A DNA stretch of 59,195 bases, filler included, from Jimgerdemannia flammicorona (lineage: Eukaryota): NCBI GenBank assembly GCA_003990765.1. It is 3 parts of 3 records of this genome, joined end to end, with 100 filler letters (N's around TTAATTAATTAA, not from the genome) between each part and the next. Parts side by side here need not be neighbours in the genome. Positions count along the whole stretch, not along the records: positions 1 to 19,666 come from RBNJ01001879.1; 2 more parts are not named here. One strand, 5' to 3'. Numbering within the stretch: the stretch's first letter is position 1; every line of letters starts with the position of its first letter. Positions 1 to 39,388 of the stretch are shown piece after piece. The position numbers and the translations under genes are program-made. The notes under the pieces are model-generated. The model saw nothing but the letters and a program-made list of their open reading frames with translations, was not told the DNA's origin and ran no database searches.

Positions 1-2
1 AG

Positions 3-710
3 CAGCACCCACGTCCACTACCTATACAACATGAAGACGAAATCAAATCGGAATTCAAAATCAAGTCCGAAATCGAATCCGCCTCGGCCAACCCAGTCGT
101 CGCCCTAACTGCTCCGGCCAACCCAGTCGTCGCCCTAACTGCTCCGGCCAACCCAGTCCCAGTCGCTCTACCGGCCATCGCCCTAGCCCTGGCTGCCCCG
201 GCCAACCCAGTCATCGCCCTAACTGCTCCAGCCAACCCAGTCCCAGTCGCCCTACCGGCCATCGCCCTAGCCCTGGCTGCCCCGGCTACCGCGGCCGCTC
301 CAGCCACCCCAACCATTCCAGCCACCCCAGCCCCAGCTACCCCGGCTGCTTCAGCCGCCCCGGCCCCAGCCCCGGCCCCGGCCCCAGCTGCCCCATCTCC
401 AGCTGTGACCATGCCGACCACGACCACGAGAAGACCAAGAGGTCATCGACCAAGAACTAGTTGTCACAACTGTAGAACCTATGGAACAACGTGCAGAAAA
501 CACTCCTACCTTTGCCAACATCTCAATCCTTCCCTACCAAATATCTCTTCGAAAAAGAGAAAATATAATAATACTGGCCGAGCTGCTGCTGTGGTGAAAA
601 GATGCCGATACCAAAGGGAGGCCGAGGAGGATGAGGAGGCCGAGGAGAACAAGGAGGACGAGTGGGCCGAGGAGGACGAGTGGGCCGAGGAGGCTGAGGA
701 GGACGAGTAG
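3..710 (+). CDS. 3' part of a gene: Pro/Ala-rich repeats, degenerate Zn-cluster-like motif, acidic tail (5' end outside window)
   Basis: The frame of ORF 405..710 is open back to position 3 (…SANPVVALTAPANPVVALTAP…). It contains RPRTS-CHNC-x6-C-x6-C, a basic KKRK patch and EEDEWA repeats. Confidence 0.55.
   Translation, partial: QHPRPLPIQHEDEIKSEFKIKSEIESASANPVVALTAPANPVVALTAPANPVPVALPAIALALAAPANPVIALTAPANPVPVALPAIALALAAPATAAAPATPTIPATPAPATPAASAAPAPAPAPAPAAPSPAVTMPTTTTRRPRGHRPRTSCHNCRTYGTTCRKHSYLCQHLNPSLPNISSKKRKYNNTGRAAAVVKRCRYQREAEEDEEAEENKEDEWAEEDEWAEEAEEDE
86..290 (+). repeat. Coding tandem repeat, 30-bp unit GGCCAACCCAGTCGTCGCCCTAACTGCTCC with longer variants
   Basis: Directly visible repeated units encoding ANPVVALTAP / ANPVPVALPAIALALAAP. 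Confidence 0.85.
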
Positions 711-1488
711 GCCAAGGAGGAGAAATGTGTGAAGTACAATCTCGAAATGAGGGGAAGAATGGGTAGGGTGTGTGAATGGGTGAATTTCAAGTGCCGATTT
801 TGTCATTTTCATTGATTCAATAAAGAACTTAAAGAACTGATAAGAACTGATGACGCGTTGGATGATGCGGATTAGTGCTAAACCTCCCTATCCGAATTTG
901 GATTTTGCTCATGATGGTCCGATCCTCACGATGGTCCGCCACATATATTAATATATTTTTTATTTCTAATAATTTATTTTTGATTTATTTCTAATTTTCA
1001 ATGATATTTTTATTTATTTATTCTAAATATCTTAGATAATATTTTTAATATCTTATAACTTTTTTTTATCTTTAATTGTATTTTTTATTTAATAAAGAAT
1101 TATATATATATATAGACAAATTTGCCTGTAAAATATTATAGCATATGTAAGAGTTAAAGATAGATTATATTTTTTTCTTAAGTTAAAATAATAATAAATA
1201 ATATAATTTTAGATTAAATTAAAGATATAAGTTAGCTTGAATTATAAAATACTATTTATTAGTAATATTGTAATGGTATAGCCAGATTCGGAAGAAGAAA
1301 ATAGGGAACAGATACTTGATTGCATTCAGTCTCAAAGTAGTATAGCTACATAGTTAGTAGTCCTCGATTTCACCACTTACTAAATATTTCGCAAAGTGTG
1401 AGATCAAGCTTCTCAATATAGTATAGCATTTCGCAACTGGTGAAATATTTTGCAAAGTGTTAAATGACTCATAACTTAGCTACATAAC

Positions 1489-3562
1489 TGTAAGAGGGTT
1501 ACTTTTTAAGGTGACCGTTACATAGTTCTAGAAGGGTTTTCTGGATATTCTGGATGTTCTAGAAGACTGTTTTCTTATGGTCAAGATCAATTTCGTATGG
1601 AGTATGTCCTCTACGCTTATTGATTTCAAGATTGGGTTGACGTCTCAACCAAAGTCCTTTTTCGGACTAGTTCTGGATGTTCAGGATTTTCTGTATTTCA
1701 GAAAGTTCAAGAAACTAAGACCAGCTTAGTTGAATTGGCGTATCGCTGCAGACAATACCCAATTAGGAAATTTCGTGACAGAGTTAGGAGTAGGACCTAA
1801 CAGGGAGCGGATTTACTTAAGAGTGATTTGTGGGTTATGGAATAGGTTTATTTGCTATTCATGATATTGCTATACTAGGAGTATTTGTGTGAAGGGATAT
1901 TGTGGGGAAGTGCTCAGGAGTTGTGTTCGGATTGTTCAAGTCTATTCGAGTCTGAGATTCTGAGGTCTGGGGGAGGGGGTATTTATACTAGTAAGGGGCT
2001 ATCTAGACTATACTAAATATGGATGTAGCACTAAGTGCCTTGCTGAGTCAGAATGCAGTCACGTAGTACAAGTGTGATCTGACATGTCAAGAGATTGTCT
2101 GACTGCTGAGTCAGTTCACAGTCACGTTGTACAAGGCTAATCTATCTATACTATGACTGCTAGACTATTTATAGGTTTAGGCACTATCTGGGTAGTCTTC
2201 GATGATATCACCATCGATTGCATAATCTCTGATGAAGTAGTCATCTAGGAAGAGTGGTTCGCAGATTACTTTTCCTTGTTGGCTGAGGTAGTAATACATT
2301 GGGACTTCATCTCCATCCTACAGGATAGCATCGTCTGTTTCGTATGCTGAATAAGGTGTTGGTAGGCGAAGGATGGGTGTATTGTCTTCACTTTCATCAG
2401 ATTCGCTGTCTGCATACCTTCTATAGATTACAGCACTATGAGTCGCGGGGTTGTAGTAAGCTGGCGGCTGTGGTTTAAGTTGCTCGTACTCAGGTGGTGG
2501 CGTTGTTGGTTCAATCTCGAGAGTTGTCTGGAGGTACAGATTGTGTTCTCCAGTCTCTTCATTGTAGTTGAAGTAGTCGGGGGTGAACGCGGGTTGGTAT
2601 TCGTGCCAGTGGTCATTGTCCCAATAAGTCTCGTATGCAGTTATGAACTGTTGTAAGTTCATCGGCAAGGTTGGTGGAGTGATCAGGGTTGGCAGAGATC
2701 CTTGGCTAGAGGTCATGTCAGTGTCAGAGGGATCATTGTCTTCTGCTTCGTCTTCATCGAAGTGGATTATATTGTAGACATCCTTCATGATATATCTGAC
2801 TTGAGGCATTTGTAGGATATGGTCATCGGGGTGCGGGAAGGTTCTGTCTGTGGTCTGGACGTATTTGAGGTACTTGTGGTTGATTTCTTGTATCATATCG
2901 TCAATTTGGCCATAGGACAGGGTAGCGACCATTTCGGTGGTAGTGACTCGGAGGCGGAGAATAAAGGTGCTGTACTCATAGAAGAGTTCTCGATGTTTGC
3001 GGGTGATGAGCTTCTGGTGTTGAGATATCTGGGTAATGTCTGTATCATGGTGGTATTCAACCATGTCTTCCAGGAGGCGGCCGATCTAGTAGTAGCTTGA
3101 GATTTGTTCAATTCGGTGGGCCTTGCTAAGCATGTTCAGGGCATTCCATCGGGCTTCCACGAAGTAGAGGGGTGCCAGGCTATGGATATTCATGAGGGGC
3201 AGAGGGGGTGTGGCTCAGTTGACAATGGCATTCCAAATGTCAGCGCGGATGCAGTTGTAGATCTCAGTGGTCATGTTTGTGTGTTTCGAAGTTGTGGTTG
3301 TTGTTTGTTTTGGTTCTCTGATTCGACGTGTCTCGGTGCTCAGTATATATGCATTTGGTCCTGATTGGTAAGGTTCCATTTGTGTAGATCTTGTGTTCCG
3401 TGACTTCGTATTGACTCAGCTTTGTGCGCTGTGACTTCGGTTTGACTCAGCTTCGTGATCAAGCAGGTGATTTCCAGATTTGTTCAGAGGTCACGTGTGA
3501 TTTCAGTGGCTTGTTCAGAGGGTGATGTGTAATTTTGGTGGCTTGGAGGTTGTGTGCTTACA
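1489..3562 (-). mobile_element. Solo LTR of family B (2074 bp), antisense, with 5-bp TSD ATAAC
   Basis: TGTAAG…CTTACA termini, ATAAC at 1484-1488 and 3563-3567, and reverse-complement match to 11030-13061. Confidence 0.93.
2177..3274 (-). pseudogene. LTR-encoded accessory ORF of family B (about 365 aa ancestrally; two premature TAG stops)
   Basis: ATG at 3274 to TAA at 2177 in one frame, including track ORF 2318..3064. Both stops are sense codons (CAG, TGG) in the 11286-12380 copy. Confidence 0.85.
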
Positions 3563-3868
3563 ATAACCCAGTAACCATCTCATAGCTAGCAAACTTATAT
3601 AAATAACCCAGTATCTTCGAGTGAATAAACCTCAGATCAAAATAGTTCAAGTAAAGAGATAGCAAAGGAACTAGTAAGCCTGTGGGCAGATACACTTCAA
3701 ACTCACCCACCCTCTCCTGCAACTCAAAGAACTCTGAGGAGTCAGAGAAGATCAAGTTTTCAAGATATAGAAATCTGATGTACTTTCAAGAGTAAGCATC
3801 TGCCACATTACAACTTGGTACCTATTGGCTGGTGATTCAAGACGAATTCCTCACTTTCAAGCTGAATA

Positions 3869-5127
3869 ATGAACAACCACCCCTATCTGAACAACTATAC
3901 AAACTGAGCCCCAATACCCAGACAAGATAGATATGAGACCACCAGTATTCCATAGATATATCTCAGATGAATCAATCATCACCTTCATTGACGATTTCAA
4001 GCAGTATGCCACTATAAGGACCCTGACAGCAGTACAGCAAGTAGCCCTCATGCCCTTTAGCCTATGAGGTCCTGCCAGAGCAGCATTCATAGCTACAACC
4101 CATACAGGAAATGATGCTAATGCTATACTGATAGTACAGAAGACCTGGCTCTGAAATACATATTATATAGATGAGATCAAGCAAGCCCTGAAGATCAGCT
4201 CAATACAACATGCCAAGGAATGAGCGAGGATCTAAACATATTCTATACTAGAATTCGATATCAGATAGTTCTTGCAGATTATGCTGCTGCTATCCAAGAT
4301 CAAGTAGCTGAAGCAACCTTCATGAAAGGAGTCTATCCAGAAATAGCCATGGCCATCTGCTCATCACCAGTGATTCCGGATCTGCTACAAAAGATCACCT
4401 ATGCTCAGCAATACTAGATAGCCAGACACCCACAAGACCATACAATGGAGAGAGTTACAGGAGTCAGAATCAAGGCACCTAAGTCAACCAGTATGATCCC
4501 CATCATAATGATCAATCGAAACACACCTCAGCCCAAAGCTACAGAGCAGCAAAAGAACAGTGACCCTTTGGAGGAACTTACCAAGAGATTTGCAGAAATG
4601 ACTGCCTACTTGGGGGATATAGTAAAGGAGATCAGAGGAAGAGACTGCCACCCTGTCCAGAAGTTTGCTGCCACCTCAGACAAGAAGAAAGGCACCTGCT
4701 ATACTTGCAGAGAAGAAGGCCACTACTCCTATGAATGCATGAGCGAAACTAAGTACAAGGCTCAACCAAGCAATGCTACATAAAACAAGGAGTAGGCCAA
4801 TACAATTATCTTTAAGAAAATTGGAGATTCTGATGAAGAAGAATAGGAGGCCTATTCTGCTCAGACTACCAAGAAGGATGTTTACAAGGAACCCTACAAG
4901 AGACCACCAGAAAGACTCAAGAAGAATCCAGTAGAAAAGCAGATGGAAACAGCCACTAAAAGCCAAGCTGAAGAGATGGACCAAGATATGGAGCTAGAAT
5001 AAGCAGTTCAAGATATTATCCAAGGAACTACCCCAGCCAGTGAAGGAGAAAAAGAAAAGAAACTTCGCAAGACCAAGACTTTCAAGTACGATATCTTCAA
5101 GGACCTTAGCCAACAAAAGGTCAATGC
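3869..5127 (+). pseudogene. gag: gag of element A
   Basis: CCHC zinc knuckle CYTCREEGHYSYEC at about 4697-4738; located after the PBS; disrupted by stops. Confidence 0.8.
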
Positions 5128-6319
5128 CATCCCCCTTTCTCCACTACCTTACCGGTCACAAGGTTTGGTAGGCGACCTTCCGAGTCCCCTTTCCCCTAAT
5201 ATTACCCCCTCTACCTCAGGTTGGTTTGCTGTGCCTGTAGGGGCATGGTGGGAGGAGGGCAATGGTGATGAGTTGCCCCTTTATCGGTGTCAGATCGGTG
5301 CTTCCTCCACTTTTTCGCAGATTCTGGTGCCTTCAGCTGCGTCTGGGGTGTACCCATTTTGGTGCGGTGCCTTCTTCCTTTTGCCGTCGCCAACAAGGAG
5401 TTGTCTTGGTGTGTCTCGGGCTATGTAGGGAGTCGGCCGACCTTGGGCGTCAAGTGCTCAGTGTAGGTTACCTGCAGGTCCTCGGTGCCTGTGGTGGGGC
5501 CCTCTGGCTTTGGCAAGCTTCCCGGTGAGCGCGGTTCTGGCATAGGTAACTGCTTTTCGGGTGTTGTCGGGATGGGAGGAGAGATGGCCGTCACAGATAG
5601 GCGGAAGGGCGATTACGGTGAACCAGTAGGGTGCCAGGCTGGGGGCGGTCATCGGGGCTGGGGCAGGTGCTGCTTCGGTGGGGCCTTTTGATTGGTGCGG
5701 CGCAGTTAGGTAGTAGGTGACACTCTCGGCTTCTTTTGGCAGGTAGCGGGGTGAGGTCCCAGTCGTCAGGGGGGGTCGGGGGGCCCGAGGCTACCCATTT
5801 CAGGCGTCTTGGCTGTACTCAACTGGAACCGGGAGCTGACACGGCAACGTGATCGAGGCCCGCAGGCTTGAGCAGTGGGGTATTGGGGGTTTCCTCCCGC
5901 CTCACGTGTAAGTCCTTTACTCACCTCAACTGGGAGAACTAGGCCCTACCCACCGTGTTGTGCTTTGATGAGGGTTTTTTCTTTGCCTGTCATTCTCTTT
6001 GGAGTGGCAGGGGCTATTCTATTCGGCTCGGACATGGCCTTGTACATACGTTGGGTTCTCAGGCGTGCGCTTTCGGTCGTTGGCATATGGTTGGGTTTCC
6101 CCTGGTAGTAGGGAGAGCATGGTGCGCAGAATGAGGTGCAGGCTTATCAGCCCTGCTATGCCTGGCATGGTCAAGCTGCTGGACAATAGCTAGCCTAGGT
6201 TAATGGGGGGGCAGTGCTTGGTGGGTGGTGGGGGAGGGTTTTGGCCTATATAGTCTAGGTTCCCTTCCAATAAAAATCCGTGGGACATGAGTCCGTAAAA
6301 CAAAAAAAAAAAAAAAAAA
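5128..6319 (+). mobile_element. Poly(A)-tailed retroposed insertion (5'-truncated LINE 3' end or SINE-like) in element A
   Basis: 16-bp TSD AACAAAAGGTCAATGC at 5112-5127 and 6320-6335, AATAAA near 6268 and an A tail. A homologous 3' end lies on the minus strand at about 38980-39390. Confidence 0.9.
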
Positions 6320-6335
6320 AACAAAAGGTCAATGC

Positions 6336-9076
6336 AACCTTTGGTCAGCTCACAGAAATCCCAACATTCAGACAACAAATGAGGTTCAGACTTGCCGAAA
6401 CAACCAAGGAGCAAGGATGGAAGATAACTGAGGCCAATAATATTCAAGAGGACTCAGGAGAAGAAAGTGAAGATAATCGCAAAACCTCCACCTATGCTAC
6501 CTGCCAGATTGAGAACCAAGTCTTTGAAGCCATCATTGATATGGGAGCAAAAGGATATCTCAGCAGTAGACTGCCTAGGCTGGGAGATAGAAGAAGCCAC
6601 CAAATTGGTGTTTGTTATAGCTAATGGAATATGAGCAACACTTCTGGGAAATATCTGGGATGTACCCATCAAGTTTGGAGAAGCCACCATCCTGGTAGAT
6701 GTCATTGTCATCAATACAACCAACTACAATATCCTCATTGACAATCAATGGCTTCACAAAGCCAAGGCAATGATTGATCTCAGTGCACAGAAGATGCAAA
6801 TTGTCTACTGGGGAAAGAAGATCAGAATTCCCATCAATGTCCACAAAGGAGTCTGCCTGGAAATGGAGGAAGAGCAAGAAGAAGAAGCCTACATGGTTAC
6901 TATGAAGAAAGGAAAAGATAAGCAGTGGATAGAGGAAGAATGGTACAAAAGGATTGCAGATGGATACACCCCACTAGGAAGGTGCCCCCATGGTGAAAGA
7001 ATGTACTGTGCCCAGTACTTGGATTGCTGCTACTCCTATATCATCAAAGTGAAAAAGATCTCCAACAAGCCAAAGAAGAACCAAGAGGAACCAGAAGATG
7101 GACCACCAGAGCTATTGAATGACAGCAATGATGAAGAAGACATCACAGTCAAGATACAAAGGATTCACCCCAATGCAGTCTTGCCACAATACAAATCAGA
7201 GAATGCAGCAGGAATGGACCTATCTATCACAACACACACAATCCTTAAACCGCAAACCACTACTATGCTGGGAACAGAAATCGAAGTAACCATCCCACCA
7301 AATCATGTCAGAATCCTCAAGACAAGGAGCAGCTTGGCAAAAAGTGAAATATCCATAGAAAGAGGAGCCATTGATTCAGACTATACAGGAGAAATCCTCC
7401 TCCTCACCAGGAATTATAATCCAACAATCCCATTTGAAGTAAAGAAGAAGGATTGGCTGACACAAATGCTCATCTTATCTGTCCTTAACCCAAGAATCAA
7501 GGAAGTTGCAAACATCAGACAAACTCAGCAAGGAAGAGCTAGATTTGGCTCTACAGGAAGAGGAGTCCTTATAGCAACCAAGATTACAGAATTGGAGCAC
7601 AAGAAGGAGGAAAGCTAAGACAAACACACTTATGTAATTGGAAAGAACTTTCCCCTCAGAAAGGAGTTGCAGAACCTCTTGCATACATTTGAAGATGTAC
7701 TGGCCACAGATTTCAAGGACATCAAGACTAAGAAATCCTTATACTATCATGATATCAATACTGGAGATGCAAAACCAATCTATCAAAAAACCCACCCCAT
7801 TCTGCCAGTATACAGAGAATGGCTCAAGACTGAAATCAAGGAAATAGAGGAATCCGGTATCATCAAGGAAGCCAGCAGCCCTTGGTCTTCACCTATTGTC
7901 CTTGCACCAAAGAAAGGAAGCTGACTAGGAGAATTTGCACCAAGACTCTGCACAGACTATAGAAGACTCAATGAGGTCACAGAGAAGGATAGACAACCAT
8001 TGCCCAATATTGGTAACATTCTTATTATGCTGGGGAATGAATTATGATTTTACACCACTCTGGATCTGTTCTCAGGATTCTACCAAATTGGCCTTATACC
8101 TGAAGCCAGCAAAAGATCAGTCTTCATTACTCCTGATAGAACCTATGTCTATCTCCACATTCCCTTTGGAATGTGCAATGCACCAGCAAGCTTCTAGTGA
8201 ATGATGAATAGTATCTTCAGAGATGTTATGGAAAAATGGATAATAGTATATATGGATGATATGATCATCTTCAGCCAAACAGCCAAGGAGTACTTAGAAT
8301 ATATTGAGGAAATCCTCAGAAGGCTTCGCAAAAATGGCCTCTACATCAAGCCCAAGAAATGCAAATTTGAAGAAGAAGAAATTGCATACCTCAGACACAT
8401 CAACCATGAGGGAACACACATAGATCCTATAAAGATCAAGGCAGTAGCAGCATATCCGGTACCTACCAGTATCACTAAAGCCCAAACCTTCATGGAACTA
8501 GCATCCTATTACAGGAGATTTATTCAAAGATTCTCCCACATTGCTAGCCCTATCTATGATCTGTTCAGAAAAGAATTCAAGTTCCAGTGGATACAATAAC
8601 AGCAACTAGTCTTTGATGAACTCAAGATCAGGCTGAACCAGGCCCCAATTTTGAGAAGACCTGACTGGATATGAGAATTTATTCTACAGACAGATGCCAG
8701 TGTAATGAGACTTGGAGCTATTCTTACACAGAAGAATAATGGCACTGAGTATGTAGTAGCCTATCTCAGCTGAGGTACTTGCAGAGCAGAGCAGTCCTAT
8801 GAGTCAAATAAGCTAGAATATCTTGCAGTCATCTGGGCTGTAGAGAAGTTCCACTATTATCTGGTGGAAAGACACTTCACTATTCAGACAGACCACTCAG
8901 CACTCACCTGGTTGCTCACCACCAGTGAACCCAAAGGAATCTATGTCTGATGGATCATGAAGCTGCAAGCATATGATGCCACAATCACTCACTGCCCTAG
9001 AAGAACCAATGCCAATGCTGATGCCCTCTCATGGATACCCCGAAGGACTCCACCCCCACAAAATCACCATGAATAG
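6336..9076 (+). pseudogene. pol: pol of element A: aspartic protease, Cys/His motif, dUTPase, RT, RNase H
   Basis: AIIDMG protease-like site near 6530, SPWSSPIVLAPKK, YMDD near 8250, LQTDAS and NANADALS RNase H motifs. Confidence 0.9.
7141..7563 (+). pseudogene. dut: dUTPase domain between protease and RT (element A)
   Basis: Motifs AAGMDL, RSSLA, GAIDSDYTGEI, TQMLI and RFGSTG in ORF 6770..7618. Confidence 0.92.
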
Positions 9077-10261
9077 GGAGCTGTACTACAGAATTATCAG
9101 CTACCTGGGGCAGCGAAAGATGCCCTCGCATCTGGAAGAATGGACAAAAACAATTATTAATCAGACATGGAAACAATTTGAAACTGATGGAGAAATACTT
9201 AAGAAAGGATAACAATTAGTCATTCCCAAGTACCAGAAGAATCAAGTAATGAAGAAAGTACATGAACAAGGCTATGTAGAAGGAACAAATATATATGACA
9301 AAGCAAGAAGAACCATGTGGTGCCTGAAATGGAAGAAGATATCAGACAATTTGTCAGAACCTGTGACAAATGTCAGAAACAGAAACAAGACCAACAAAAC
9401 CAGGCCCCGGGATCAGCATGCATAGAACCAGTACCATTTGCCCACATAGCAATGAATGTAATTGGCCCTCTACCCTTGACCCTGACTGGTAACTGATATA
9501 TCATTGTCATTGTAGACCTTTTTACGAAGTGGATAGAAGTAGGACCCCTCAAGGAAGCTAATGTACAGTCAATCACTAATTTCTTCCACAAGGAAATCAT
9601 CTGTCAGTTCAAGACCCCAACACAAGTAACTATAGATAGAGGAACAGAATTCGTGAACTAGCTCTTTGAGGTTCTCTACAAGAAGTATAAGATCCAGCAC
9701 ATTCAGACCACAGCCTATCACCACCAAGGAAATGGACAAGCAGAAAGGACCAACAAGACCCTCAAGAATGTTATCACCAAGATCTGTAATAACTATGAAA
9801 ACTGAGATCACTATCTGCCAATAGTATTATCTGCTCTCTGGGATATCAGATCACAAAGTACCCACTTTATCTCCTGGGAGATGCTGTTCAGAGAAGAAAG
9901 TTCTAGTGGAAGTTTGTCAGCAAATAATGATGCAGTCTGGAAGCATATGGATATGGAGATATGGAGATTACATCAAATTAGGAAAAAGGCAGAGAATTAT
10001 ATAATCAAGGCATAGGCACTACAATGGAGTAATGCAGAAAAGATCCACAAGCCCGTGGAGATTATTAAGATAGGAGATGAAGTCCTGGTAAACTAGAACA
10101 TAGTAGAAGCTTCTTGGTCATGAAAACTGGAGCCCAAGTGGGAAGGACCTTACCTGGTGTAAGATATAAAAGGGACCACTTTCCAACTATGAAAGCCCTC
10201 AGGCACAATAATCCCCACCACCATTCACTGAAACCAACTTAAGAAATATCATGGCCAGTAA
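9069..10261 (+). pseudogene. Integrase of element A, starting at its own ATG
   Basis: FVRTCDKCQK zinc-binding part, VIGPLP, IDRGTEF and GNGQAER core, KWEGPY C-terminal motif; disrupted. Confidence 0.88.
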
Positions 10262-10730
10262 TAAAAGTACTGCAATGGCACTCAAGATCACTAGTACTGC
10301 CCAAAGAGCCATCAAGAGACAATGGCATACCACCAAGCCTCTGACTATAGAGAAGTCTTATGATAGTATCCAAAGCATTGTACAGACTCATCTCTCTCGA
10401 ATCTCACACTTCAAGGCCTATTAGCATCAAAATGAATTTCAAGAGTACTTAAAACTTGGCCAAGTACTCAACCAAGACCCAGAAATGACCAAAGAAAATT
10501 GGATCGCAGAATGCCAGCTCTCCTATTCCCAGATCACCATTGCTAAGAGAATCTATAAGCTATTCCAAGAGGATGAACCAGCACTAGCCCACCTGTGAGA
10601 AGTGACTCCCTCAGACTTCAACCAAGTCAGGTGACACTATTGGGAAATAGTAATGCAACAAATCACACAATACAAGACCATATAGACCATTGAAGCCTAG
10701 GAGTTTGAATAGATGCTTCAAGGATGAGAT
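10251..10730 (+). pseudogene. Accessory ORF3 of element A, similar to the LTR ORFs of families B and C
   Basis: Hand translation from ATG 10251: …QEYLKLGQVL…ITIAKRIYKLFQEDEPALAHL*EVTPSDFNQV…. The stops are consistent with C>T or G>A decay. Confidence 0.65.
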
Positions 10731-10749
10731 CATCTATTCAGGAGAAAGT

Positions 10750-11029
10750 TGTGACAGTATAGCCAGATTCAGAAGAAGGAAATAGGGAACAGACACTTGA
10801 TCACACCCAGTCCCAAAGTAGTATAGCTACATAGTTAGCAGTCCTTGATTTTGCTACTTGCTAAATATTTTGCAAAGTACAAGATCGAGCTTCTTGATAG
10901 TATAGCATTTCGCAACTGGTGAAATATTTCACAAAGTGTTAAATGACTCATAACTTAGCCACATAACTCAGTAACCATCTCATAGCTAGCAAACTTGTAT
11001 AAATAACCCAGTATCTTCGAGTGAATAAA
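10750..11029 (+). repeat. 3' LTR of element A (5' part; interrupted by element B, remainder not seen)
   Basis: Direct match to 1269-1488 plus 3568-3629; TATAAATA at 10998-11005. Confidence 0.9.
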
Positions 11030-11285
11030 TGTAAGCATACAACCTCCAAGCCACCGAAATTACACACGACCTCTGAATAAATCTGGAAATCACCTGCTTG
11101 ATCACAAAGCTGAGTCAAATCGAAGTCACAGCGCACAAAGCTGAGTCAATATGAAGTCACGGAATACAAGATTTACACAAACAGAATCTTACCAATCAGG
11201 ACTAAATGCATATATACTGAGCACCAAGACATGTCGAATCAGAGAACCAAAACAAACAACAACCATAACTTCCAAACACACAAAT

Positions 11286-12380
11286 ATGACCACTGAGATC
11301 TACAACCACATCCATGCTGACATTTGGAATGCCATTGTCAACCGAGCTACACCCCCTCTGCCCCTTATGAATATCTATAGCCTGGCACCCCTCTACTTTA
11401 TGGAAGCCCGATGGAATGCCCTGAACATGCTTAGCGAGACCCACCGAATTAGACAAATCTCAAGCTACTACCAGATTGGCCGCCTCCTGGAAGACATGGT
11501 CAAACACCACCATGATACAGACATTACTCAGATGTCTCAACACCAGAAGCTCATCGCCCACAAACATCGAGAACTCTTCTATGAGTACAACACCTTTATT
11601 CCCTGCCTCCGAGTTACTACCAGTGAAATGGTTGCTACCCTGTCCTATGGCCAAATCGATGATATGATACAAGAACTCAACCACAAGTATCTCGAGTATG
11701 TCAAAACTACAGACAGAACCTTCCCACACCCCAATGATCATATCCTGCAAATACCTCAAGTCAGATATGCCATGAAGGATGTCTATGATATAATCCACTA
11801 TGAAGATGAAGCAGAAGACAATGATCTCTCTGATGCCAACATGACCTCTAGCCAAGGATCTCTGCCAACCCTGATCACACTGCCAAACTTGCCGATGAAC
11901 TTACAATAGTTCATAACTGCATACGAGACTTATTGGGACAATGACCACTGGTATGAATACCAACCCGCATTCACCCCCAACTACTTCAACTATAATGAAG
12001 AGACCGGAGAACACAACCTGTACCTCCAGACAACCCTCGAGATTGAACCAACCACTCCACCACCTGAGTATGAGCGACATGAACCACAGCCACCAGCTTA
12101 CTACAATCCTGCAACTCATAGTACTGTAACTTATAGAAGGTACACAGACAGCGAATCTGATGAAAGTGAAGACAATACACCCATCCTTCGCCCACCAACA
12201 CCTTATCCAGCATACAAAACAGATGATGCTATTCTGTGGGATGGAGATGAAGTCCCAATGTATTACTACCTCAGCCAACAAGGAGAAGTAATCTGCGAAC
12301 CACTCTTCCTAGACGACTACTTCATCAGAGATAATGCAATTGATGGTGATGTCATCGAGGACTACCCAGACAGCGCCTAA
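11286..12380 (+). pseudogene. LTR-encoded accessory ORF of family B (364 aa; one premature TAG at 11907-11909)
   Basis: A single frame runs from ATG 11286 to TAA 12378-12380. The one stop is CAG in the solo-LTR copy. Confidence 0.87.
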
Positions 12381-13064
12381 ACCCATAAATAGCCTAGCAG
12401 TCATAGTATAGTTAGATTAGCATTATACGACGTGACTGTGAACTGACTCAGCAGTCAGATGATCTCTTGACATGTCAGATCACACTTGTACTATGTGACT
12501 GCATTCCGACTCAGCAAGGCACTTAGTGCTACATCCATATCTAGTATTGTCCAGATAGCCCCTCACTAGTATAAATACCCCCTCCCCAGACCTCAGAATC
12601 TCAGACTTGAACAATCCGAACACAACTCCTGAGTACTTCCCCACAATATTCCTTCACACAACTATGTACTCCTAGTATAGCAATATCATGAATAGCAAAT
12701 AAACCTATTCCATAACCCACAAACCACTCTTAAGTAAATCCGCTCTCTGTTCGGTCCCACTCCTAACCCCATCACAAAATTTCCAAATTGGGTATTGTCT
12801 GCAGCAATACGCCAATTCAACTAAGCTGGTCTTAGTTTCTTGAACTTCCTGAAATATGGAAAATCCTGAACATCCAGAACTAGTCTGGGAAAGGACTTTG
12901 GTTGAGATGTCAACCCAATCTTGAAATCAATAAGCATAGAGGATATACTCATATGAAATTGATCTTGACTATAAGAAAACGGTCTTCCAGAATATCCAGA
13001 ATCTCTAGAAAACCCTTCCAGAACTATGTAATGGTTACCCTAAAAAAGTAACCCTCTTACAACT

Positions 13065-13076
13065 TGGTAGCAGCGG
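13065..13076 (+). promoter_or_regulatory. Primer-binding site TGGTAGCAGCGG (resembles the complement of an initiator tRNA-Met 3' end)
   Basis: Lies 3 nt after the LTR end. A near-identical TGGTAGCAGCAG follows the LTR of element D. The tRNA identity is inferred. Confidence 0.7.
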
Positions 13077-15094
13077 TTTATAATCCAATTCCACTTCAAG
13101 ACACTTCCTCACCCTGCTACAAACCCTTCTGAGAATTCCTACAAGTTGGTATAAAGCCCAACCACTGAACTGGAATTTATCCTGAACCATCTGACAATCT
13201 GGAGAGAATTGAACCTAATGTACAAGGACAATTTGACCTCCATACCTGCAACAAGTGGGATAAACTTCATTCAAAGAAAGAAGTACTCCAGTTAAACCAG
13301 CAAATAGATGAAACCCTATTCACCGAACTCCTTGCACTACACCCAGCAAGTCAAGACAAAGAAGGTCTTATTGAAGCCTTCTTTACTCTTCTCAACAAGA
13401 GTTTTGTCAGCTCCACAAATCTGAGCAACCTAGGACAACCAGCAGCAGTCTTTCTAGCCTTAGTTCCTCACAAAGCCCAAGCCTCTGTAGCCAAGTGGTT
13501 CAACTCTACCAACTTTCACCATACCAGGACCAAGACTACCTTATACTACCGATTCCAGAACAGCAAGGCCTGCTATATCCTTAAAGAAGAAGCAAGAGAA
13601 ACCCTTCATCAACTACCTAACCCCAAACCTGAAGCAGGCCCTGCTACAGCCCTACCTGAATCCGAAATCAATACTGAACCTGAACTTGACTTTGAATTAA
13701 GTTCATCTGAAATCAGATATACAACTGATTCTGTCTACTTTGATGCCAAGCAAACCCAATTACACGGGGACCAAACCGAAGAAGAGGAGGAGTATCTCAC
13801 CGAATTCGATCCTGGATACACCACTGAAGGAGACACATGCCCATCAGGACAGAATATACCTACACAGCAACAAACAGCTATCTATCAAGCTCTTACTCCA
13901 GATCCACAACTACTACTCTAGCAGCTTACACAGACTCAAAGAACCCCATCACACTCTGCACCAGTACCTCAAGTAGTACCAGTAACACTACTATCAGCAG
14001 TCCAACCGCCTCCAGCAATCAACATGGTGAACCAATAGATTCTTGACCTCACAGCCCAAGTAGCTATAATGGCAGCAACTATTACTGCCTTAGCTGAACA
14101 GACCTGACCTACCAAAAATCTGAGCCTACCTACCTTCAATGGTACTGTACAAGAAGTCCAAAGCTTCATTAGTATAGTTGATACCAACTTTGAAGCCAAT
14201 CAATGGACCAATGAGCGAGTTGCTGACTGTGTTCTGACAAACAATCAAGACCACACCCTAGAATAACTCTTTGCTACCACTACAGTCTATGTCCGCTGAG
14301 TTGTTACATTCTTCCGAGGACCTGCCGAAGAATGGTGGCGAACCCTTCCTGAAAAACCCCTCACATGAGATACCCGATCTGCAGTAGTTGCTCAGAATGT
14401 AGCAAACAATGCCCCAGGATATGGAGCCCATCCTGCAGCCCCTGGACTCAAACAACTCATGATTGCTCAATATCGCAGCGAAACTATGATTGCTGAATCT
14501 CGAGCAAAACTCCGCAACCTCAAATTCGATGTACATGGCAAAGAAGAATTTGAAACCTTCTGTACAAAACTCGAGTCACTCCTGAACACTGTTGGCCTAG
14601 GATACATTACCAATGACAAAGCACGAAATAGTACAAGAGCAGACCATTTATTTGATGCCCTGCCTGAATGGCTTACTAGAAAAATCTAAGAACAAGGCCG
14701 CCCAGTTGGTTGTGATCACCAACAATGGTGCCTGGCAAGAATCAAGACCATGGTCAAGCGAATCCTAACAGCTGGACCAATTCTGCCCTGAAGGCAATTC
14801 AACAACAAGGAAAAGACTTAGACCAAGAAAGAAGAACCCAAGTATGAAGCATCCCGAGCTCCCTCCACATCCACCTCTTGGACACCCAGAAATCCTGAAC
14901 CCACCCAGCCCAGTACCTTCAAGAAACTTACTGAAGGTGAAAGGAATGAACTTTGAAGAAGTGGAGCATGTTTCTATTGCTGAAAGACAGGACATATGGC
15001 CAGTGCCTGCCCTAACTGAAAACCCCGAACAGCAACATGAACAACTGTCACCACTCTATACCACCTCAACAACCTGACCACCAGAACACTAGAC

Positions 15095-15497
15095 TTTGCC
15101 AAGTTAAGATAAACTGGTAAGGTCCCAACCAAAGGAAGTCAAAAAGCAGCTGGATATGACCTGTATGCAGCTGAAGAAGCTACAGTTTCCAACCAAGAAG
15201 TCAAACAAGTCTATACAGGAATCAGTATCCAAATCCCTGAAGGACATGTTGGAAGAATATGCTGTTACAGCAGTCTAGCACTGAAAGGACTCTCAGTAGA
15301 AGAAGGAGTCATTGACGAAGATTACACAGGCGAAATCATTGTCCTCATTCGAAACCACAGTTGGACACCCTTCAAAATCCCTATTGGTTTCTGCATTGCC
15401 CAGATCTTGTTCGAAAAAATCGAGTCAACCCTGACAGTCAAGGAAGTCCCTGAACTACTACCCACCATCTGAGGATCCAAAGAATTTGGCTCATCAA
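15095..15497 (+). pseudogene. dut: dUTPase domain between gag and protease (element B)
   Basis: Hand translation gives KAAGYDLYA, SSLALKG, GVIDEDYTGEI, IAQILF and EFGSS. Confidence 0.9.
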
Positions 15498-16553
15498 ACA
15501 AGGCCCCAGCCCAACCTACTATGAGCAAAGAAGAATAATTCTACAAGAAGATAGAAGATGAATATGTACCAAGTGGCCAATGCCCTCATGGTATTGGAAT
15601 GTACTCTTCCCGAATGATTGATAATTGCTTCTCTTGTGTCAATAAACTGGCTTAAAGAAGAACCAACAGAAGAAAGGCTCCTATAACTGAAATCACCACA
15701 ATTGGATCAGACAAACTGCTCACCCTTAAAGCTTTTGTCAATGGAGCACCTGTCAAGATTATGATAGACAGTAGTGCCTCAGGCAACTTCATCAATGAAG
15801 AGACAGCCAACAGACTCAAGGTCTTCACCTTCCCTATACAGCAAACTCAAGCAGTTGCTACAGCTGATGGAACCTCACATGTTATTAGCAAAGAAGTCCG
15901 CAATCTACCCTTCTGAATTGGCGACTACCGAGTATATGTTACCCTCCAAATCATACCACTTCCTGACAATGAAATCATCCTTGGGACTCCATGGTTAAAG
16001 CAAGAGAACCCCATGATTAATTGGGTAAACCATTCTCTGACCATCAAGAAAGGACACCACAACTTCAAACTATAAGGCGAAAAGGACTCACTCAACTCTA
16101 GTGACCCTGGACCAAAGATCACCCACATCAACAAGCTACAACTCAAGAAATTGGCCAAGAAATGTCCTCTCTTCACCATCTCCATCTGACCATCCAAAGG
16201 AGAACCTGAGAACTCTGAAGAAGATTTTTCTAAAGTTGACAGCCATGTCAGACCACTACTCCAGAAATTCCGAGACATATTCCCAAAGAAGCTCCCGAAA
16301 GGCCTACCTCCCAAATGAGCAGTAGACCATGCAATCAAGACTATCCCAGATGCCAAACCAGCCTTCAAGTCAATCTACCACATGTCTCCGAGAGAAATTG
16401 ATGCACTCAAAAAGGAAATCAACGAACTCCTAGAACAAGGATTCATCAGACCCAGCGTATCACCCTATGGTACACCAGTCCTCTTCGTTGTTAAGAAAGG
16501 AGGAGACCTATAGATGTGTATTGACTACTGTGATCTCAATGAACAGACCCAAA

Positions 16554-19305
16554 GGCACATCTTTCCTGGTAACATTCAGGTTACACAACCCTTTGGCAAC
16601 ACTTTCGACATAGTTTCTGGAGAAAAGCTACTAGTATCATGGCAACCAACGAGCATCCGGAGGTGCGTACTGGGCAGGGTAGCCCTAGAGCATTTGAATG
16701 GCAGCAAGTGGGGAGAGGCCCCAGCTTGGGGGGTAGTATGAGGGGCCTGCTGGTGGGGGGCCATGGTGGAAGAGGGGGCAGAGCTGGAGGTCAAGGGTCT
16801 GGCAGGGTGAGCTTTGCGGAGAAGGTGAAGGGGAGTCGGTAGGGAGTGAGACTGGAGAGCTGGCTGAGAGGGGGGAAGGTACCGGTGATGGCTTCTAGGC
16901 AGTAACCTCTTGGGGGTGCCTCTCTGGAGGGCCATAGGAGTGGAGCTGGGGGGGTAGCAGCTGGGGTGGGGACTGCTGATGGGGGTGTGACAGGTGATCT
17001 GGAGAAAAATCTAGATGGGACTGCTGATGGTGAGCCGAGCAGTGGGAAGGCCCAGGGACCTGGCGGATGGTGTAACGGGACTGGCGGTGGCCCCATTACT
17101 CAAGAAGTCGATCTTAGTGTTCGCAGTCATACTGTGCTTCTGGGGCTTAGCAGTGACGGCAAAAATGGTGTTGGGGCTTATTACTAAGCAGGTGATGGGA
17201 GCGGCTTCGGTGAAGTTTCTGAAGGGACTGGAGGGGGTAGAGGTGGGATTTGAGGAGGTGGAACTGCTGGAGGAGGTGCTGAAGATTGGGTTAGTGGTTG
17301 GGGAGATGTATGTTCCAATGGCGAGGTGTTTGAAATGGGATCTGAGGGTGGTCCAACTGCTGGTGAAAGGAGTACCCACAGTGATGGTGATGGAGATAAG
17401 GAAGAGAGTGGAGGATGTCATGGCGGAGTATGGAGAGGTAGTGGATATCGGATTCAGAGTCTGGGAAGGGACCACACTCAGGACTGGGGATGTGGGTGTG
17501 AGGATTCGGCTGGCTGGGAAAGAGGCTACCGGGAAGATGAGAGACTGGCCTTCAGTATTGGTCTGGGGGGCTTTCCTGTGCAAGGTGACATGGGTGAAAG
17601 AAAGTGAAGAAGAGGAGGAAGATTTATTGGAAGCACTGGAGGAGCTGGATGGAGCTGTGGAATAGCGAGCTAAGGCCTGGAAGACTTTCGAGGAGTCGAT
17701 ACTCCTGGAGGTGGTGGATGGAAAGAGGATTCGAGTGGACAAGGTGCAGTGAGAAAGGGCTCAGGGGTAGAAGAGGCAGAAGGATTTGCTGGCTAAGCTG
17801 GGGGGTGGACAACAGAAGGATGCAAGCATGAAGACAGATACAGAAGGGGCCGGAGCGAGTGTCTGGGCTGGTGAGAGGAGTGGGAATGAAGGAGCAGGGT
17901 CAGGGAAGGCTAAGGAGGTGAAGATTAGAGACCTATATGCTGACGGCACCTTGGAGATTTGGGATGACGGCTGTGAGAACTCCCCCACCCCTTCCCCTCT
18001 AATCAGGTAGGGCCCAGCTTCCAGAAACAAGCCTGGGGAGGACGTGACGATACTGGGAACCCAGCAGGTGAAATTCAGCATTCTGGAGGTATTGGATGGG
18101 GACCAAGTAGTGGCAGCAGGGGAGGAGGAACTGGTGGATGTCCTGGAGGTGTGGGATGAGGACGCAAGTGCAGGAGCAGACACTATAATGCTGGATGGAG
18201 GGAGGCTGGCGACCCCTGGTGGAAAGGAGGTAGGGAACCTACTTTGGATGTGCCGGATGATGAATAACCTAGTGGCAGAAGAGCTGGGGGAGGTGGACTT
18301 GCATGGGATGGGTGACAAGTACTGGATAAGAATTTTGTAGGAGGAAGGAGTGGCAATGGCACTGAAGGTGGAAATTCTCATGGTGTATCTAGAGGAGGAA
18401 GAGTATGAGGTGGATAAGGAGAGGGAGGTGGAGTTGGCGGTGGTCACTGGGGAGAAGGCTGAGTACTGTTGGAACAGGCATCATGGGTTGCAGCTTTGGC
18501 AGGAGGCTTGCATTGAGTTCCGAGAGGAGTTTGAGGAGAAGGCTAATAAGGAGATGAATGAGCTGTTGGCTGGACTGGAGGCTCAGAGGGCTGAAGAGGA
18601 GGAGGTGATGGCTGAACATAATCTGGACATGGCACAGGAGGAGAGGGGCATGGAGCAGTAGGATTGATTGAGAACAAACCATATTTTATTATGAACAGTA
18701 CAACCAACATTTTTTCTTTGAACGTGAATGGGCTAAGGGGTGCAATTAGACGCAGGAACATTTTTCTTTGGTTGAAGGGATTGGAGGCCAATCTCTTCCT
18801 CTTGCAGGATGTCAGGTGCGAGGATGATGCTAATAGGATGGAATGGACTAAGGAATGGGGTGGTATGGTGATTTGGAACAGCAAGGTTGGGATTCTGGTT
18901 CGGAAAGGCAGAGGGGAGATAAAGGATGTGAGGAGCTGAGGGGAGAGACTGGTCTGGGGTGAGTGGATTTGAGCAGGTTGGGAGCCGGTCACAGTTGGCT
19001 CCTGTTACTGCCCTGCAGTGTGGGGGGAGCATGTGGATTGGGTGAAAGGACTCCTGGAGAGTGGGATCCTTACTGAAGCTGGGTTGGATATGCTTGGAGG
19101 AGATTTCAATATGGTTCGAGATGTATGGCTGGATAGAACTGATGGAGGATGGGGTATGGAGAGCAGGAGTGGGGGGTTAGTGACATGGGAGGAGGTTGAA
19201 AGGCTAGGAGCACTGGTGGATGCTGGTAGGGAGCACTGGGGGGACAGGAGAGTATATATGCATTGGGCTGGAGGTCTGGGGACAAGGATTGATTGGATTC
19301 TGATG
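16554..19305 (+). mobile_element. L1-like LINE family 1, 5' part (ORF1 16639-18661, APE endonuclease from about 18691), inserted in RT of element B
   Basis: 5' UTR nearly identical to 53454-53540. APE motifs SLNVNGL, GGDFN and RIDWIL. Confidence 0.88.
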
Positions 19306-19666
19306 GCCCGTCTTGCCCGTCTTGCCCATGTTACCCGCGTCTTACCCGTATCGTTTTGCCCGTTTTGCCCATCTTGCCTATGTCATCCGACTTGCCATCT
19401 TGCCCATCATGCCCATGTTACCCGCCTTGCCCGTCTTGCCCGTCTTGCCCGTCTTGCCCGTTTTGCCTGTCATTTTGCCCATTTTGCCCGTCTTGCCCAT
19501 GTCGCCTGTCTTGTCTTGCCCGTGTTGCCCATCTTACCCATTTTGCCGGTCTTGCCCATGTCGTTTTGCCCATTTTGCCCATCTTGCCCATGTCGCCCGT
19601 CTTGCCATCTTGCCCGTGTTGCCCACTTGCCCGTTTTGCCTGTTATGCCTGTCTTGCCCATTATGT
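19306..19666 (+). repeat. Degenerate 9-bp minisatellite (GCCCGTCTT/GCCCATCTT)
   Basis: Directly visible; abruptly replaces the LINE sequence and runs into the gap. Confidence 0.92.
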
Positions 19667-35639: not shown

Positions 35640-38220
35640 ATAGAATGATATTTTTAATCTATCTCTTACTAAGTATATAATTGATCTGTCTCTATTATTA
35701 ATTGTAATATTCAAAAGTTGACTAAATATATATTATAAAATACTGGGCTTAAATTTTAAAATTTGTTTAGATTGCTTAAAGATTTAATTTTAAAAATATA
35801 GTTTTTATATTTTCTTAAATAAAATTTACCTAGAATATATTTTGAAGCTATAATTAATAGTTTTCAGATTTTGAAACTAGGTTAAAATTTTAAAAAGAAA
35901 TTAACTGATTTTATATATTTTTAATATCTTATTTAAGAATTTTTTTTATTTATTTTTATATTTTTTATTATAAAAATAAATATAAAATAAAAATATCTCT
36001 CAAAAAAAAAAAATGTATACTTAAAAACTTTAAAAAGATGATATATTTTAATATATTATTTTTTTTTTAAAGAAAATAATAATAATAATAATATAAATAT
36101 AAATAGAAATTATAAAAATAAAAATAATAAAGAATCAAATAATAATAAAGAAAAACTATATAATAAATTATTATATATATATATATCACTAGAAATTTCT
36201 AATAGAAATTTCTATAGAAATTGTAATGAAATTTTCAACTAATAGTTATAAATACTAAATATAGTATATATAACTATATATGATAGATCCAGTGTACTAT
36301 ATTTAGTTATAGCTTTGAATCTGTATAAATATCCTCAATACTGAGTATATTATAATCTTAGCTCTACTTTTTCTGAATAGAAGAATAATGTAGTATTCCA
36401 TCATAAAACTCTCAGATCTGACTTATTAATAATCTCAAGTCTGATATCAGCATAGTACCTCTGTTATCAATATAAAAACCTGAAAGCAATACTTAAATTA
36501 TACTGTTACAATAGATAATTGAAACTCAGTACTTTTAATAAGAACTCAGAACTAGGACTGATAGTTAATATTGATTATCTATAATATATTAATTCTATCA
36601 GTATATAGATTTATTATAATTTAGTAATAGTAGAAGTCAGTCTCACCCATGAGTAAGCTTCTCATAAAGATCCTATTACAAATATAGACAACTAAGTCAA
36701 TATCACCAATATTATTAGTAATAATTAAAGAATATCTTCACACTGGCTACTCCTTAGAACTAAGCTAAAGAAGCCAATAGAATTATCACTAAGTAGACTG
36801 AGACCCATATCAGTCAAGAGGAATTCAATAGACTCAATAATAAATCTATTTAAGAAGTATTCAATATATTTATCATACTTAACAAAAAGTTATACATATT
36901 TAAAAAAAAAAAAAAATTCAAAATAATAATTAGTAGCTACTTTTATAAGAAATATATAAGAGAATCTATTAAGCTATAAGTAGATATTTCTTAAATCTCC
37001 TTTCAAACAATTACTACTACAAAGCTAAGATCTTCTTGAACTATAAGAGATATTATACCAACTAAAGGAAATCTTATCTCTATTACTGAGTCCTCTATAT
37101 ACAAGTAAAGATAATCCAATAGTAAGGATTGCAAACTACCAGACCTAGCAAAGTCTCTTCTATATAATCACAACCTAGAAGAATAGTCAAAAAAATATCT
37201 AAACCTGATATCAGTAGTACCAGTATTACTATAGACTCACTACTAAGAATATCAAGTCTACTAAAAATTACTGCAGAAGATCTAGTAATAACTTCATCAA
37301 AACCACTAATCTATATATAGAATGATCACTAAGTTTACCTATCTTAATAATATTATAGAAGAAATAACTATATATTATACCACTTCTGAATAATAGTATT
37401 GAAAGAAAGACTATCACTATCTCACTATATAAGTAATAGAATAATATCAGTAGATAAAAAAATATAGCTCTGACTGATCAAGTGACCATACTTTCCTAAG
37501 CTCTTTACTTTAGTATCAAAATAAATAAACCAATAAAGGATCTCTGACTCATACCATTTTAAAGCAAAGTAGACCAAGTAATAATATTTATTGGACAAGT
37601 TGATACCAATTATTATACTAATGAATAGAATGATAATTAGAATTCAGACAGTACTCTCCAAAATAATAAATTTTATAAGATTGAAGATCTCTATATAACT
37701 GTAGGCTCACAAGTAGAGAAAGTTATCACTCATTTCACAGGTATAGCTACTCAGTAGTGGTATAATTTTCCAGTATACTTTCTCATAGAGAAACTTATAC
37801 TGAAATCATTATATGTGAAGGAGATAATGATCACTCTAACTATAAAGCCTATACAGCTATCATAGATTTAAAAGAGCTGATCATCCAATAGTTCTACAGC
37901 TCTGTCCATATTGCTAAAGTCAGAACCAAGCTCAGAACCTTCAATTCTACAATAACAAAAAAGAAGACTTGAAAGTATTTACAACAAGATCAGAAACTCT
38001 CCTGAATACTATAAAAGCAGAATATTATCAATAAGAACAAACTGTGAATAGAATCAGAGCAGTATACTTCTTTGACACTATTCCAGGATTACTGTAATAA
38101 ATTGTTACATATCTATAAGCTACTTGAATTTCTGACAGAAATTTCAATAGAAATTCTTATAGAAATTCCTATAGAATTTTCAACCAGTAATTATAGATAC
38201 TGAATATAGTATAACTATAT
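35640..38220. other. Very AT-rich, CpG-depleted relic DNA with a ~90-bp direct repeat (36190-36280, 38137-38220)
   Basis: Base composition, absence of ORFs and the repeated AGAAATTTC…TATAACTATAT block. Origin not identifiable. Confidence 0.6.
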
Positions 38221-38920: not shown

Positions 38921-38924
38921 TATC

Positions 38925-39388
38925 TTTTTTTTTTTTTTTTTTTTTTTTTTAATCTTTGTTTTTTTTTTTTTTTTTTTTTTTACAGACTCAGTGTCCTGCA
39001 GATTTTTATTGGAAGGAAACCTAGACTATATAGGCCAAAACCCTCTCTCACTACCCACCAAGCACTGTCCCCCCATTAAATCTAGGCTAGTTATTGTCCA
39101 GCAGCTTGACCTCATTCTGTACACTATGTTCTCTCTATCATTAGAGAGAACTCAGCCATATGCCAATGACAGAAAGTGTATGCCCAAAATCCCAAAATAT
39201 GTATAAGGCCATGCCCAAGCCAAATAGAATAGCCCCTGCTACTCCAAGTAGAAATGACAAACAAAGAAAAAATTCTCCTCAAGGTACAGAATGGTGGACA
39301 GGACCTGGTTCTCCCAAGTGAGGTGAGTAGAGGACTTACACATGAGGCAGGAGGAGACTCCCAATACCCCACTACTCAAACCTGCAGG

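Follow-up and report, generated by a model that had tools for sequence, protein, structure and literature searches.

A probable accessory gene within the 2-kb long terminal repeat of a Ty3/Gypsy-type retrotransposon from Jimgerdemannia flammicorona

Long terminal repeats (LTRs) are usually regarded as non-coding blocks that supply a promoter and a terminator, and they are masked by annotation pipelines. Can such a repeat carry a protein-coding gene of its own? This question is raised by a 59,195-nucleotide (nt) stretch of DNA from Jimgerdemannia flammicorona (assembly GCA_003990765.1; hereafter the window, of which positions 1 to 19,666 come from RBNJ01001879.1), in which an original prediction, made from the sequence alone, had noticed an open reading frame (ORF) of 364 to 365 codons inside a 2-kb LTR. 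The best explanation overall, and one that we consider probable, is a Ty3/Gypsy-type element whose 2-kb LTR carries a selected 364-codon accessory gene in its unique 3' (U3) region.

We found that the 2-kb unit is the true LTR of a Ty3/Gypsy-type retrotransposon, represented in the window by two copies (A and B) together with the primer-binding site and internal region that follow copy A:

11030..13061, plus strand: LTR copy A, the 5' LTR of a truncated Ty3/Gypsy-type element, TG..CA (blastn, alignment, uninterrupted site at 3625-3634, metagenome contigs)
1489..3562, minus strand: solo LTR copy B, with an ATAAC target-site duplication (alignment, flanks, uninterrupted site at 10963-10967)
13065..13076, plus strand: primer-binding site TGGTAGCAGCGG, 3 nt past the LTR end
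13064..16556, plus strand: internal region with Gag, CCHC knuckle, dUTPase, aspartyl protease and the start of reverse transcriptase (RT); 24 stops; cut by an insertion resembling a long interspersed nuclear element (LINE)

Copy A is a unit of 2,032 bp, for which blastn returned a single other copy in the window, on the minus strand (1489-3513; 91.0% identity over 2,030 columns), and a MAFFT alignment that included the flanks set the limits of this copy B at 1489-3562. Copies A and B alike start with TG and end with CA. The prediction had described the repeat as a solo LTR with a target-site duplication, and this description held: ATAAC flanks copy B on either side (1484-1488 and 3563-3567), giving a 5-bp target duplication, and copy B sits within an LTR of a second, unrelated Gypsy family, whose paralogous LTR (upstream of copy A) is uninterrupted and carries ATAAC once, at 10963-10967. 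Copy A was inserted ~60 nt further along the same host LTR, after ATAAA (11025-11029), and the uninterrupted counterpart of this site is found at 3625-3634; metagenome contigs agree with the window as far as 11029 and then continue with the sequence of that counterpart, thereby placing the insertion point of copy A. The right-hand side of this insertion site is absent from the window. In its second role, as a 5' LTR followed by a primer-binding site, the repeat likewise behaved as had been described, with TGGTAGCAGCGG lying 3 nt past the end of copy A and gag-pol after it; a primer-binding site pairs with the CCA end of a tRNA. At the opposite end, a purine-rich tract directly abuts the sequence of position 11030 in six contigs of metagenome run X2 (agreement 0.85), as expected of a polypurine tract before a 3' LTR, and this tract gave no match in the window at up to 3 mismatches. 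In run X1, summed contig depth, a weak measure, was ~3 times higher over the LTR than over the internal region. Copies A and B are both dead now, through CpG-biased transitions.

Each of the two LTRs of the host element took up one of the 2-kb-LTR insertions; in LTR coordinates the two sites are ~60 nt from each other, and the insertions are oppositely oriented. This arrangement may reflect a target preference.

Downstream of copy A, one frame encodes Gag, a CCHC knuckle, a dUTPase (E = 2.7e-29), an aspartyl protease and the first RT motifs. No integrase lies between protease and RT, and the LINE-like insertion interrupts the element at ~16556, before RNase H or integrase could appear. A protein search with the element's Gag (13169-13918) revealed no relative among 345 candidates.

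Within this LTR we delineated a complete, ancestrally intact ORF, in the following two versions:

11286..12380, plus strand: LTR-resident ORF of copy A, 364 codons plus stop, with a premature stop at 11907-11909 (frame, simulations, substitutions, and the relatives P0003 and P0004 described below)
2177..3274, minus strand: the ORF in copy B, 365 codons plus stop, with three premature stops (codons 20, 63 and 319)

In copy A, the only premature stop is at codon 208, and none of the stops is common to the two copies, as each aligns with a sense codon in the other; the noted frame with stops at differing codons was thus reproduced. The ORF lies wholly in the repeat, starting 256 nt from the LTR 5' end, and it was carried by both window copies; its presence in copy B (3274-2177) bears out the claim that a solo LTR retains the gene. 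In addition, metagenome contig pieces span all bins of the ORF. The alignment of copies A and B contains a single coding indel, of 3 nt, agreeing with the one-codon difference reported before, and six indels in the LTR outside the ORF (32, 1, 10, 4, 1 and 1 nt), none a multiple of 3. Among the rows listed for metagenome contigs of four runs, the LTR has eight indels, of which one, the same 3-nt insertion, falls in the ORF and seven, of 1, 2 or 4 nt, fall outside it; 28 further rows lie beyond those counted.

Base composition on the LTR strand is biased toward A and C (A 0.34, C 0.27, G 0.16, T 0.23). To assess the length of frame attainable by chance, we simulated the LTR 2,000 times with a first-order Markov model and read each simulation in six frames. 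The longest open frame observed (254 codons) exceeded both the mean (99) and the maximum (205) of the simulations, and the longest span with one stop reached 411 codons, versus a simulated maximum of 266. Elsewhere in the same stretch, the two remaining sense frames contain 13 and 34 stops and the three antisense frames 3, 25 and 27, and the base composition of the ORF is coding-like (G at codon positions 1/2/3: 0.26/0.10/0.14). With no common stop, an in-frame indel and a length reached in 0 of 2,000 simulations, the earlier proposal of an intact ancestral ORF stands.

Selection on this frame was read from the differences between copies A and B. Across the LTR there are 146 transitions and 16 transversions, and CpG context has a strong influence (27 C/T differences before G versus 42 conserved CpG). 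Our neutral model placed the observed differences randomly among sites of the same base and neighbor class. Under this model, 32.8 ± 4.0 synonymous differences were expected in the ORF, as opposed to 48 observed among 97 (P = 0.0002 in 5,000 simulations and 0.001 in 1,000). The differences at codon positions 1, 2 and 3 numbered 31, 16 and 50, respectively, versus expectations of 32.9, 28.5 and 35.6. The synonymous excess was found in either half of the ORF (26 versus 18.5 expected, and 22 versus 14.4), and the two shifted sense frames had none (25 and 17 synonymous). As for antisense coding, the antisense frame with three stops showed no excess (26 versus 28.7 expected), and the one that did (47 versus 33.6) is broken by 25 stops and merely shares its wobble and third positions with the sense frame; antisense coding was therefore rejected. 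This substitution pattern argues that the ORF evolved under purifying selection while the LTR family was active. Relative to synonymous differences, nonsynonymous ones reach about half of what neutrality predicts; as both copies decayed after insertion, this value sets a ceiling on the ratio in the active phase. Moreover, relative synonymous codon usage of the ORF correlated with that of the element's own gag-pol at r = 0.72, versus 0.27 and 0.55 for the shifted frames, and this similarity argues against a recent foreign origin.

The ORF has also decayed less than the gag-pol of the same insertion. Within the element of copy A, gag-pol has 24 stops in 1,165 codons versus 1 in 364 for the LTR ORF, and stop-prone codons have been converted in 24 of 107 cases versus 1 of 28 (Fisher P = 0.026); the observed/expected CpG ratio falls from 0.41 in the LTR to 0.26 in the internal region. 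Such a gap would fit a longer-lasting constraint on the LTR gene, and possible causes are heavier methylation of the element body, a gag-pol that was defective at insertion, or gene conversion between LTRs.

Searches of very large protein collections identified P0003 and P0004 as the only relatives of the ORF product (1 match among 481 near candidates and 1 among 30 shorter ones). P0004 (128 amino acids [aa]) is 91% identical, has the same start methionine and is open to the contig end. P0003 (247 aa, on a 998-nt contig) shows 63% identity and 80% positives over residues 115-363; the alignment has two small gaps, the relative is free of stops, and its C-terminus coincides with that of the ORF. 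A profile search of 1.84 billion representatives gave three matches, namely P0003, P0004 and a marginal repeat protein (P0005, E = 8.9e-4) that we took as chance, and no cellular homologue of the ORF was found among these representatives. On this comparison, retention of frame and stop position at 63% identity is not the behavior of a non-coding repeat.

Pattern scans of assembled contigs brought no further relatives: in metagenome contigs, the protein pattern had 584 matches with 0 confirmed and a 22-nt LTR pattern had 0 matches; in viral contigs, 20 pattern matches were obtained with 0 confirmed, and a second pattern scan gave 0 matches. Words sampled from the LTR were partly present in 20 public runs from 13 studies, mostly soil metagenomes, none of which reached half of the words and none of which is listed as RNA. 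Four runs, examined over 2.6 kb, yielded 3,892, 760, 443 and 341 contig pieces, in which changes are mostly transitions; the family is therefore high-copy in some soil eukaryote. In run X15, whose RNA label is a guess, depth was high only over 12627-12887 and low over the ORF, and we draw nothing from this observation, since contig depth is no measure of expression.

How such an ORF might be transcribed is suggested by the layout of the LTR, in which the following motifs were located:

11103..11164, plus strand: two tandem 31-nt units with TGAGTCA, upstream of the ORF (repeat search)
11211..11216, plus strand: TATATA, candidate ORF promoter (conserved in copy B at 3349)
12419..12515, plus strand: two inverted 31-nt units between the ORF and the main TATA (arms 12419-12452 and 12485-12515)
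12570..12577, plus strand: TATAAATA, presumed main LTR promoter, with the presumed U3/R border next (conserved in copy B)
12698..12703, plus strand: AATAAA polyadenylation signal (conserved in copy B at 1852)

Copies A and B both conserve the TATATA at 11211, the ATG of the ORF at 11286, the TATAAA at 12570, the AATAAA at 12698 and TGA[CG]TCA sites. Because the ORF is upstream of the conserved TATAAA (190 nt from the ORF end) and AATAAA, we infer that it lies in U3. The TATATA precedes the ATG by 70 nt with no AUG in between, and an in-frame stop upstream of the ORF, at 11142, excludes that the ORF is a run-on of pol. TGAGTCA, which we take to be a bZIP site of the AP-1/Gcn4 type, is present in each of the two tandem units; the two inverted copies are 73-77% complementary, with arms of 22-34 nt. 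The tandem units end 47 nt before TATATA, and the inverted units end 55 nt before TATAAA.

In the arrangement that we propose, the U3 gene would be the 3'-terminal gene on the RNA genome, past the polypurine tract; reverse transcription would copy it to both ends of the element, and every solo LTR would retain it. Two promoter modules would then operate, with the units plus TATATA serving the ORF and the mirror-image units plus TATAAA serving the genomic RNA. For the ORF transcript, polyadenylation would use the signal in the LTR itself, and the gene would form a self-contained transcription unit.

The strongest competitor of this arrangement, which we hold to be possible but less likely than not, is that the ORF is translated from RNA driven by the 5' LTR promoter, either a spliced subgenomic message or the genomic RNA with the ORF near its end (as for nef, sag and env); the LTR copies would then not be independent transcription units, and solo LTRs would be silent for the protein. 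The U3 position does mean that each genomic transcript has the ORF at its 3' end, and precedents are described in sections of two papers: sense ORFs downstream of pol, e.g., that of barley Bagy2, are expressed by splicing (PMC7264820), and the CERV protein of Cer1 arises from a spliced mRNA (PMC10309623). Against this explanation stands the conserved TATATA 70 nt before the ATG, which is preceded by the same repeat units as the main TATA and separated from the ORF by no intervening AUG.

An improbable alternative is that the ORF cassette entered an ancestral LTR as a foreign insertion, either a transduced cellular gene or a small element whose ends or subterminal parts are inverted repeats, and has hitch-hiked since. 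Two units upstream and two inverted ones downstream bracket the ORF symmetrically (11103-11164 and 12419-12515), and gene capture by LTR retrotransposons is documented, as excerpts of one review state (PMC7264820). However, the repeat arms have no flanking target duplication, Pfam detected no transposase or other domain, no cellular homologue emerged from the 1.84 billion representatives, and codon usage fits that of the element's gag-pol. In any case, the synonymous excess, along with a relative that keeps its frame intact at 63% identity, shows selection after any capture, such that this alternative bears on the origin of the ORF and is compatible with a present function. Very unlikely is a non-functional relic or a by-product of A+C-rich composition whose protein was never made, for although both window copies are broken, no run with LTR words is listed as RNA, and neither a protein family nor a confident fold was obtained (the Atlas model of P0003 has a predicted local distance difference test [pLDDT] score of 0.39), the observed length was reached in none of the 2,000 composition-matched simulations, there are a synonymous excess and a 3>1>2 codon-position pattern, indels within the ORF are in-frame only, and frame and stop are retained at 63% identity.

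Several points count against the reading of a selected accessory gene in U3. No full-length element with the 2-kb unit at both ends was seen in the window, and the 3' junction is known from short loose ends of metagenome contigs alone. The DNA copies number two and both are dead. The estimated nonsynonymous load, about half the neutral one, blends selection before insertion with decay after it. The openness of P0003 and P0004 is partly a matter of ascertainment, because protein collections take in called ORFs only. The 31-nt units differ between copies A and B by 1-3 per ~31 nt, which is no better conservation than that of the surrounding LTR, and the borders of U3, R and the unique 5' (U5) region, the ORF promoter and poly(A) use are all read from motifs. 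Finally, any function is a guess, since there are no relatives outside the family, no confident fold and no recognizable domain.

The predicted protein itself offered few points of comparison. Pfam gave no family at E <= 0.01 and none relevant at E <= 10 (one chance match to IMCp), the sequences of the PDB held no relative (best E = 0.27), and the ESM Atlas returned no usable look-alike. An hhalign comparison of the ORF protein with the element's own Gag gave a probability of 0.1, and tblastn detected no paralogue of the ORF in the window. A fold check by AlphaFold, which had been suggested at the outset, produced no usable model (pLDDT 33 and 39), i.e., AlphaFold2 reached 33.4 with a 4-row alignment and 38.9 for the N-terminal part alone. 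These models draw helices through residues 3-175 and little beyond; the N-terminal half is predicted to be helix-prone. The N-terminal part has a predicted isoelectric point (pI) of 5.5 and 13 histidines. In the C-terminal part (pI 4.05), there are 33 Asp and Glu versus 6 Lys and Arg, 27 of 156 residues are aromatic (17%) and 18 are proline; this half is probably disordered. The segments best conserved in P0003 are residues 115-160 and 195-310, and the acidic linker between them (165-190) is poorly conserved.

The sequence would specify a soluble acidic protein with no visible signal peptide or basic cluster. PPEY, PPAY and the acidic/aromatic tail, all mentioned in the original prediction, are indeed present, with both motifs in both window copies; the PPxY motifs are unlikely to be essential, however, as 0 of the 2 positions are kept in the 63%-identical relative P0003. 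Each half has one cysteine and there is no cysteine cluster. Given this, and few basic residues, direct DNA binding by the protein appears unlikely. On these results, the trans-activator or anti-silencing role put forward in the original prediction is a guess. Our own guess, offered tentatively, is that the protein may be a trans-acting, protein-binding adaptor that does not bind DNA and that aids expression of its family by co-activation, RNA export or relief of silencing. An extension that we hold with similar reserve is that each LTR would be an autonomous gene with promoter, ORF and poly(A) signal; thousands of units, outlasting the loss of the internal region, would then produce a trans-acting factor, and solo LTRs would supply the active copies that are left with a 'public good' in the form of an anti-silencing or expression-boosting adaptor.

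The closest analogue of such a gene is found in mouse mammary tumor virus (MMTV), in which the dUTPase lies just upstream of the protease, the same order as in the element described here. Its Sag protein is a membrane glycoprotein, whereas the ORF protein here is acidic and soluble-looking, and no superantigen role would be anticipated in hosts other than vertebrates. The element here is of Ty3/Gypsy type with no env seen, unlike the betaretrovirus MMTV, and Sag has no sequence homology to the ORF here (Pfam at E <= 10; PDB). In portions of one MMTV paper, the sag/naf ORF is described as lying wholly in U3, like the ORF here, and as being drivable by an extra promoter within U3, comparable to our candidate TATATA; MMTV is there also said to carry a dUTPase, as does our element (PMC9412291).

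Among LTR retrotransposons, additional ORFs (aORFs, in the sense of Vicient & Casacuberta 2020) provide a second comparison. Those described in passages of one review comprise the env-like ORFs of Athila and Bagy2 and the antisense ORFs of Grande, RIRE2, Retand and Boty (PMC7264820). Like the ORF here, they are family-wide extra ORFs beside gag-pol, with no homologue among cellular genes or transposable elements and with no assigned function (same passages of PMC7264820). In contrast, aORFs belong to the internal part of the element, most of them lying after pol and ahead of the 3' LTR, and the ORF here sits within the repeat, past the polypurine tract; the phrases 'in the LTR', 'within the LTR' and 'inside the LTR' do not occur in that review (PMC7264820). 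The C. elegans Ty3/Gypsy element Cer1 offers an orphan, fast-evolving accessory protein, CERV, that acts in trans on the element's RNA in the export of genomic RNA, as set out in parts of its description (PMC10309623). According to the same parts, CERV is unlike the ORF here in being encoded by a five-exon spliced mRNA that shares gag exons, in having predicted globular domains and in not being LTR-resident (PMC10309623). Family and profile searches, beyond which no comparison was made, found no similarity of CERV to the ORF protein. By analogy, CERV may be a model for what the ORF protein does.

An LTR-resident gene of the kind described here combines retrotransposon accessory ORFs with retroviral U3 genes. 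An open-access text search by exact phrases for a retrotransposon with a gene inside its LTR found MMTV alone, which is not proof of absence; the U3-gene arrangement is known from a mouse retrovirus and has apparently not been described for retrotransposons. Fungal Gypsy elements that bear a dUTPase (PosPlaTy3 of Postia placenta, elements of Phanerochaete, and Tmt1 of Tuber) are reported, in sections of one study, to have it at varying positions, including the amino terminus of Pol, comparable to the elements in our window (PMC2864245). A fungal origin, which the original prediction assumed, would be compatible with these elements of basidiomycetes and Tuber. An 'add. ORF' is marked for some fungal elements in Figure 3 of that study, in the sections of which no statement of an LTR-internal ORF was seen (PMC2864245).

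The position of the dUTPase also differs between the two families that are nested in the window, since it comes before the protease in the 2-kb-LTR family and after it in the second, unrelated Gypsy family. The latter spans 1268-11029 and hosts both 2-kb-LTR insertions (1489-3562, and 11030 onward), with CCHC at 4418-4780, protease and then dUTPase at 6635-7615, and RT at 8201-8596. A third Gypsy-type element (40224-43031, minus strand) contains CCHC, protease, RVT_1 and RNase H. A G-rich, LINE-like family is present at 16557-19666 and 53458-56126 (GC skew +0.4 to +0.5; ~70% identical) and interrupts the Gypsy RT; by eye, it has an endonuclease-like N-terminus at 18691-18939, with no Pfam match. 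RVT_1 was further detected at 57104-57907, and Pfam assigned no family to a 774-aa ORF at 53260-55581. A pattern of 44 N, 12 bases and 44 N occurs twice in identical form (19667-19710/19723-19766 and 39433-39476/39489-39532) and may represent masked stretches or assembly joins; flanking elements do not continue across them, and the first follows a tandem repeat at 19306-19665. The block at 36001-39000 has 21-29% G+C, compared with 40-58% in the rest of the window. Pfam, Rfam and tRNA scans found no cellular gene, Rfam RNA or tRNA in the window, the whole of which appears to consist of nested transposons.

For the biology of the family, the location of the gene matters in that an LTR gene is doubled with each insertion and survives the LTR-LTR recombination that removes gag-pol. 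Because it survives in this way, its dosage scales with the number of solo LTRs, not with that of intact elements. The pairing of a dUTPase ahead of the protease with a U3 gene is one that MMTV also has (PMC9412291 for its U3 ORF and its dUTPase). If expressed, the ORF would be a retrotransposon counterpart of retroviral U3 genes such as MMTV sag and the U3-overlapping nef, and it would give a handle on how a high-copy family of a soil eukaryote coped with silencing of the CpG-methylation type.

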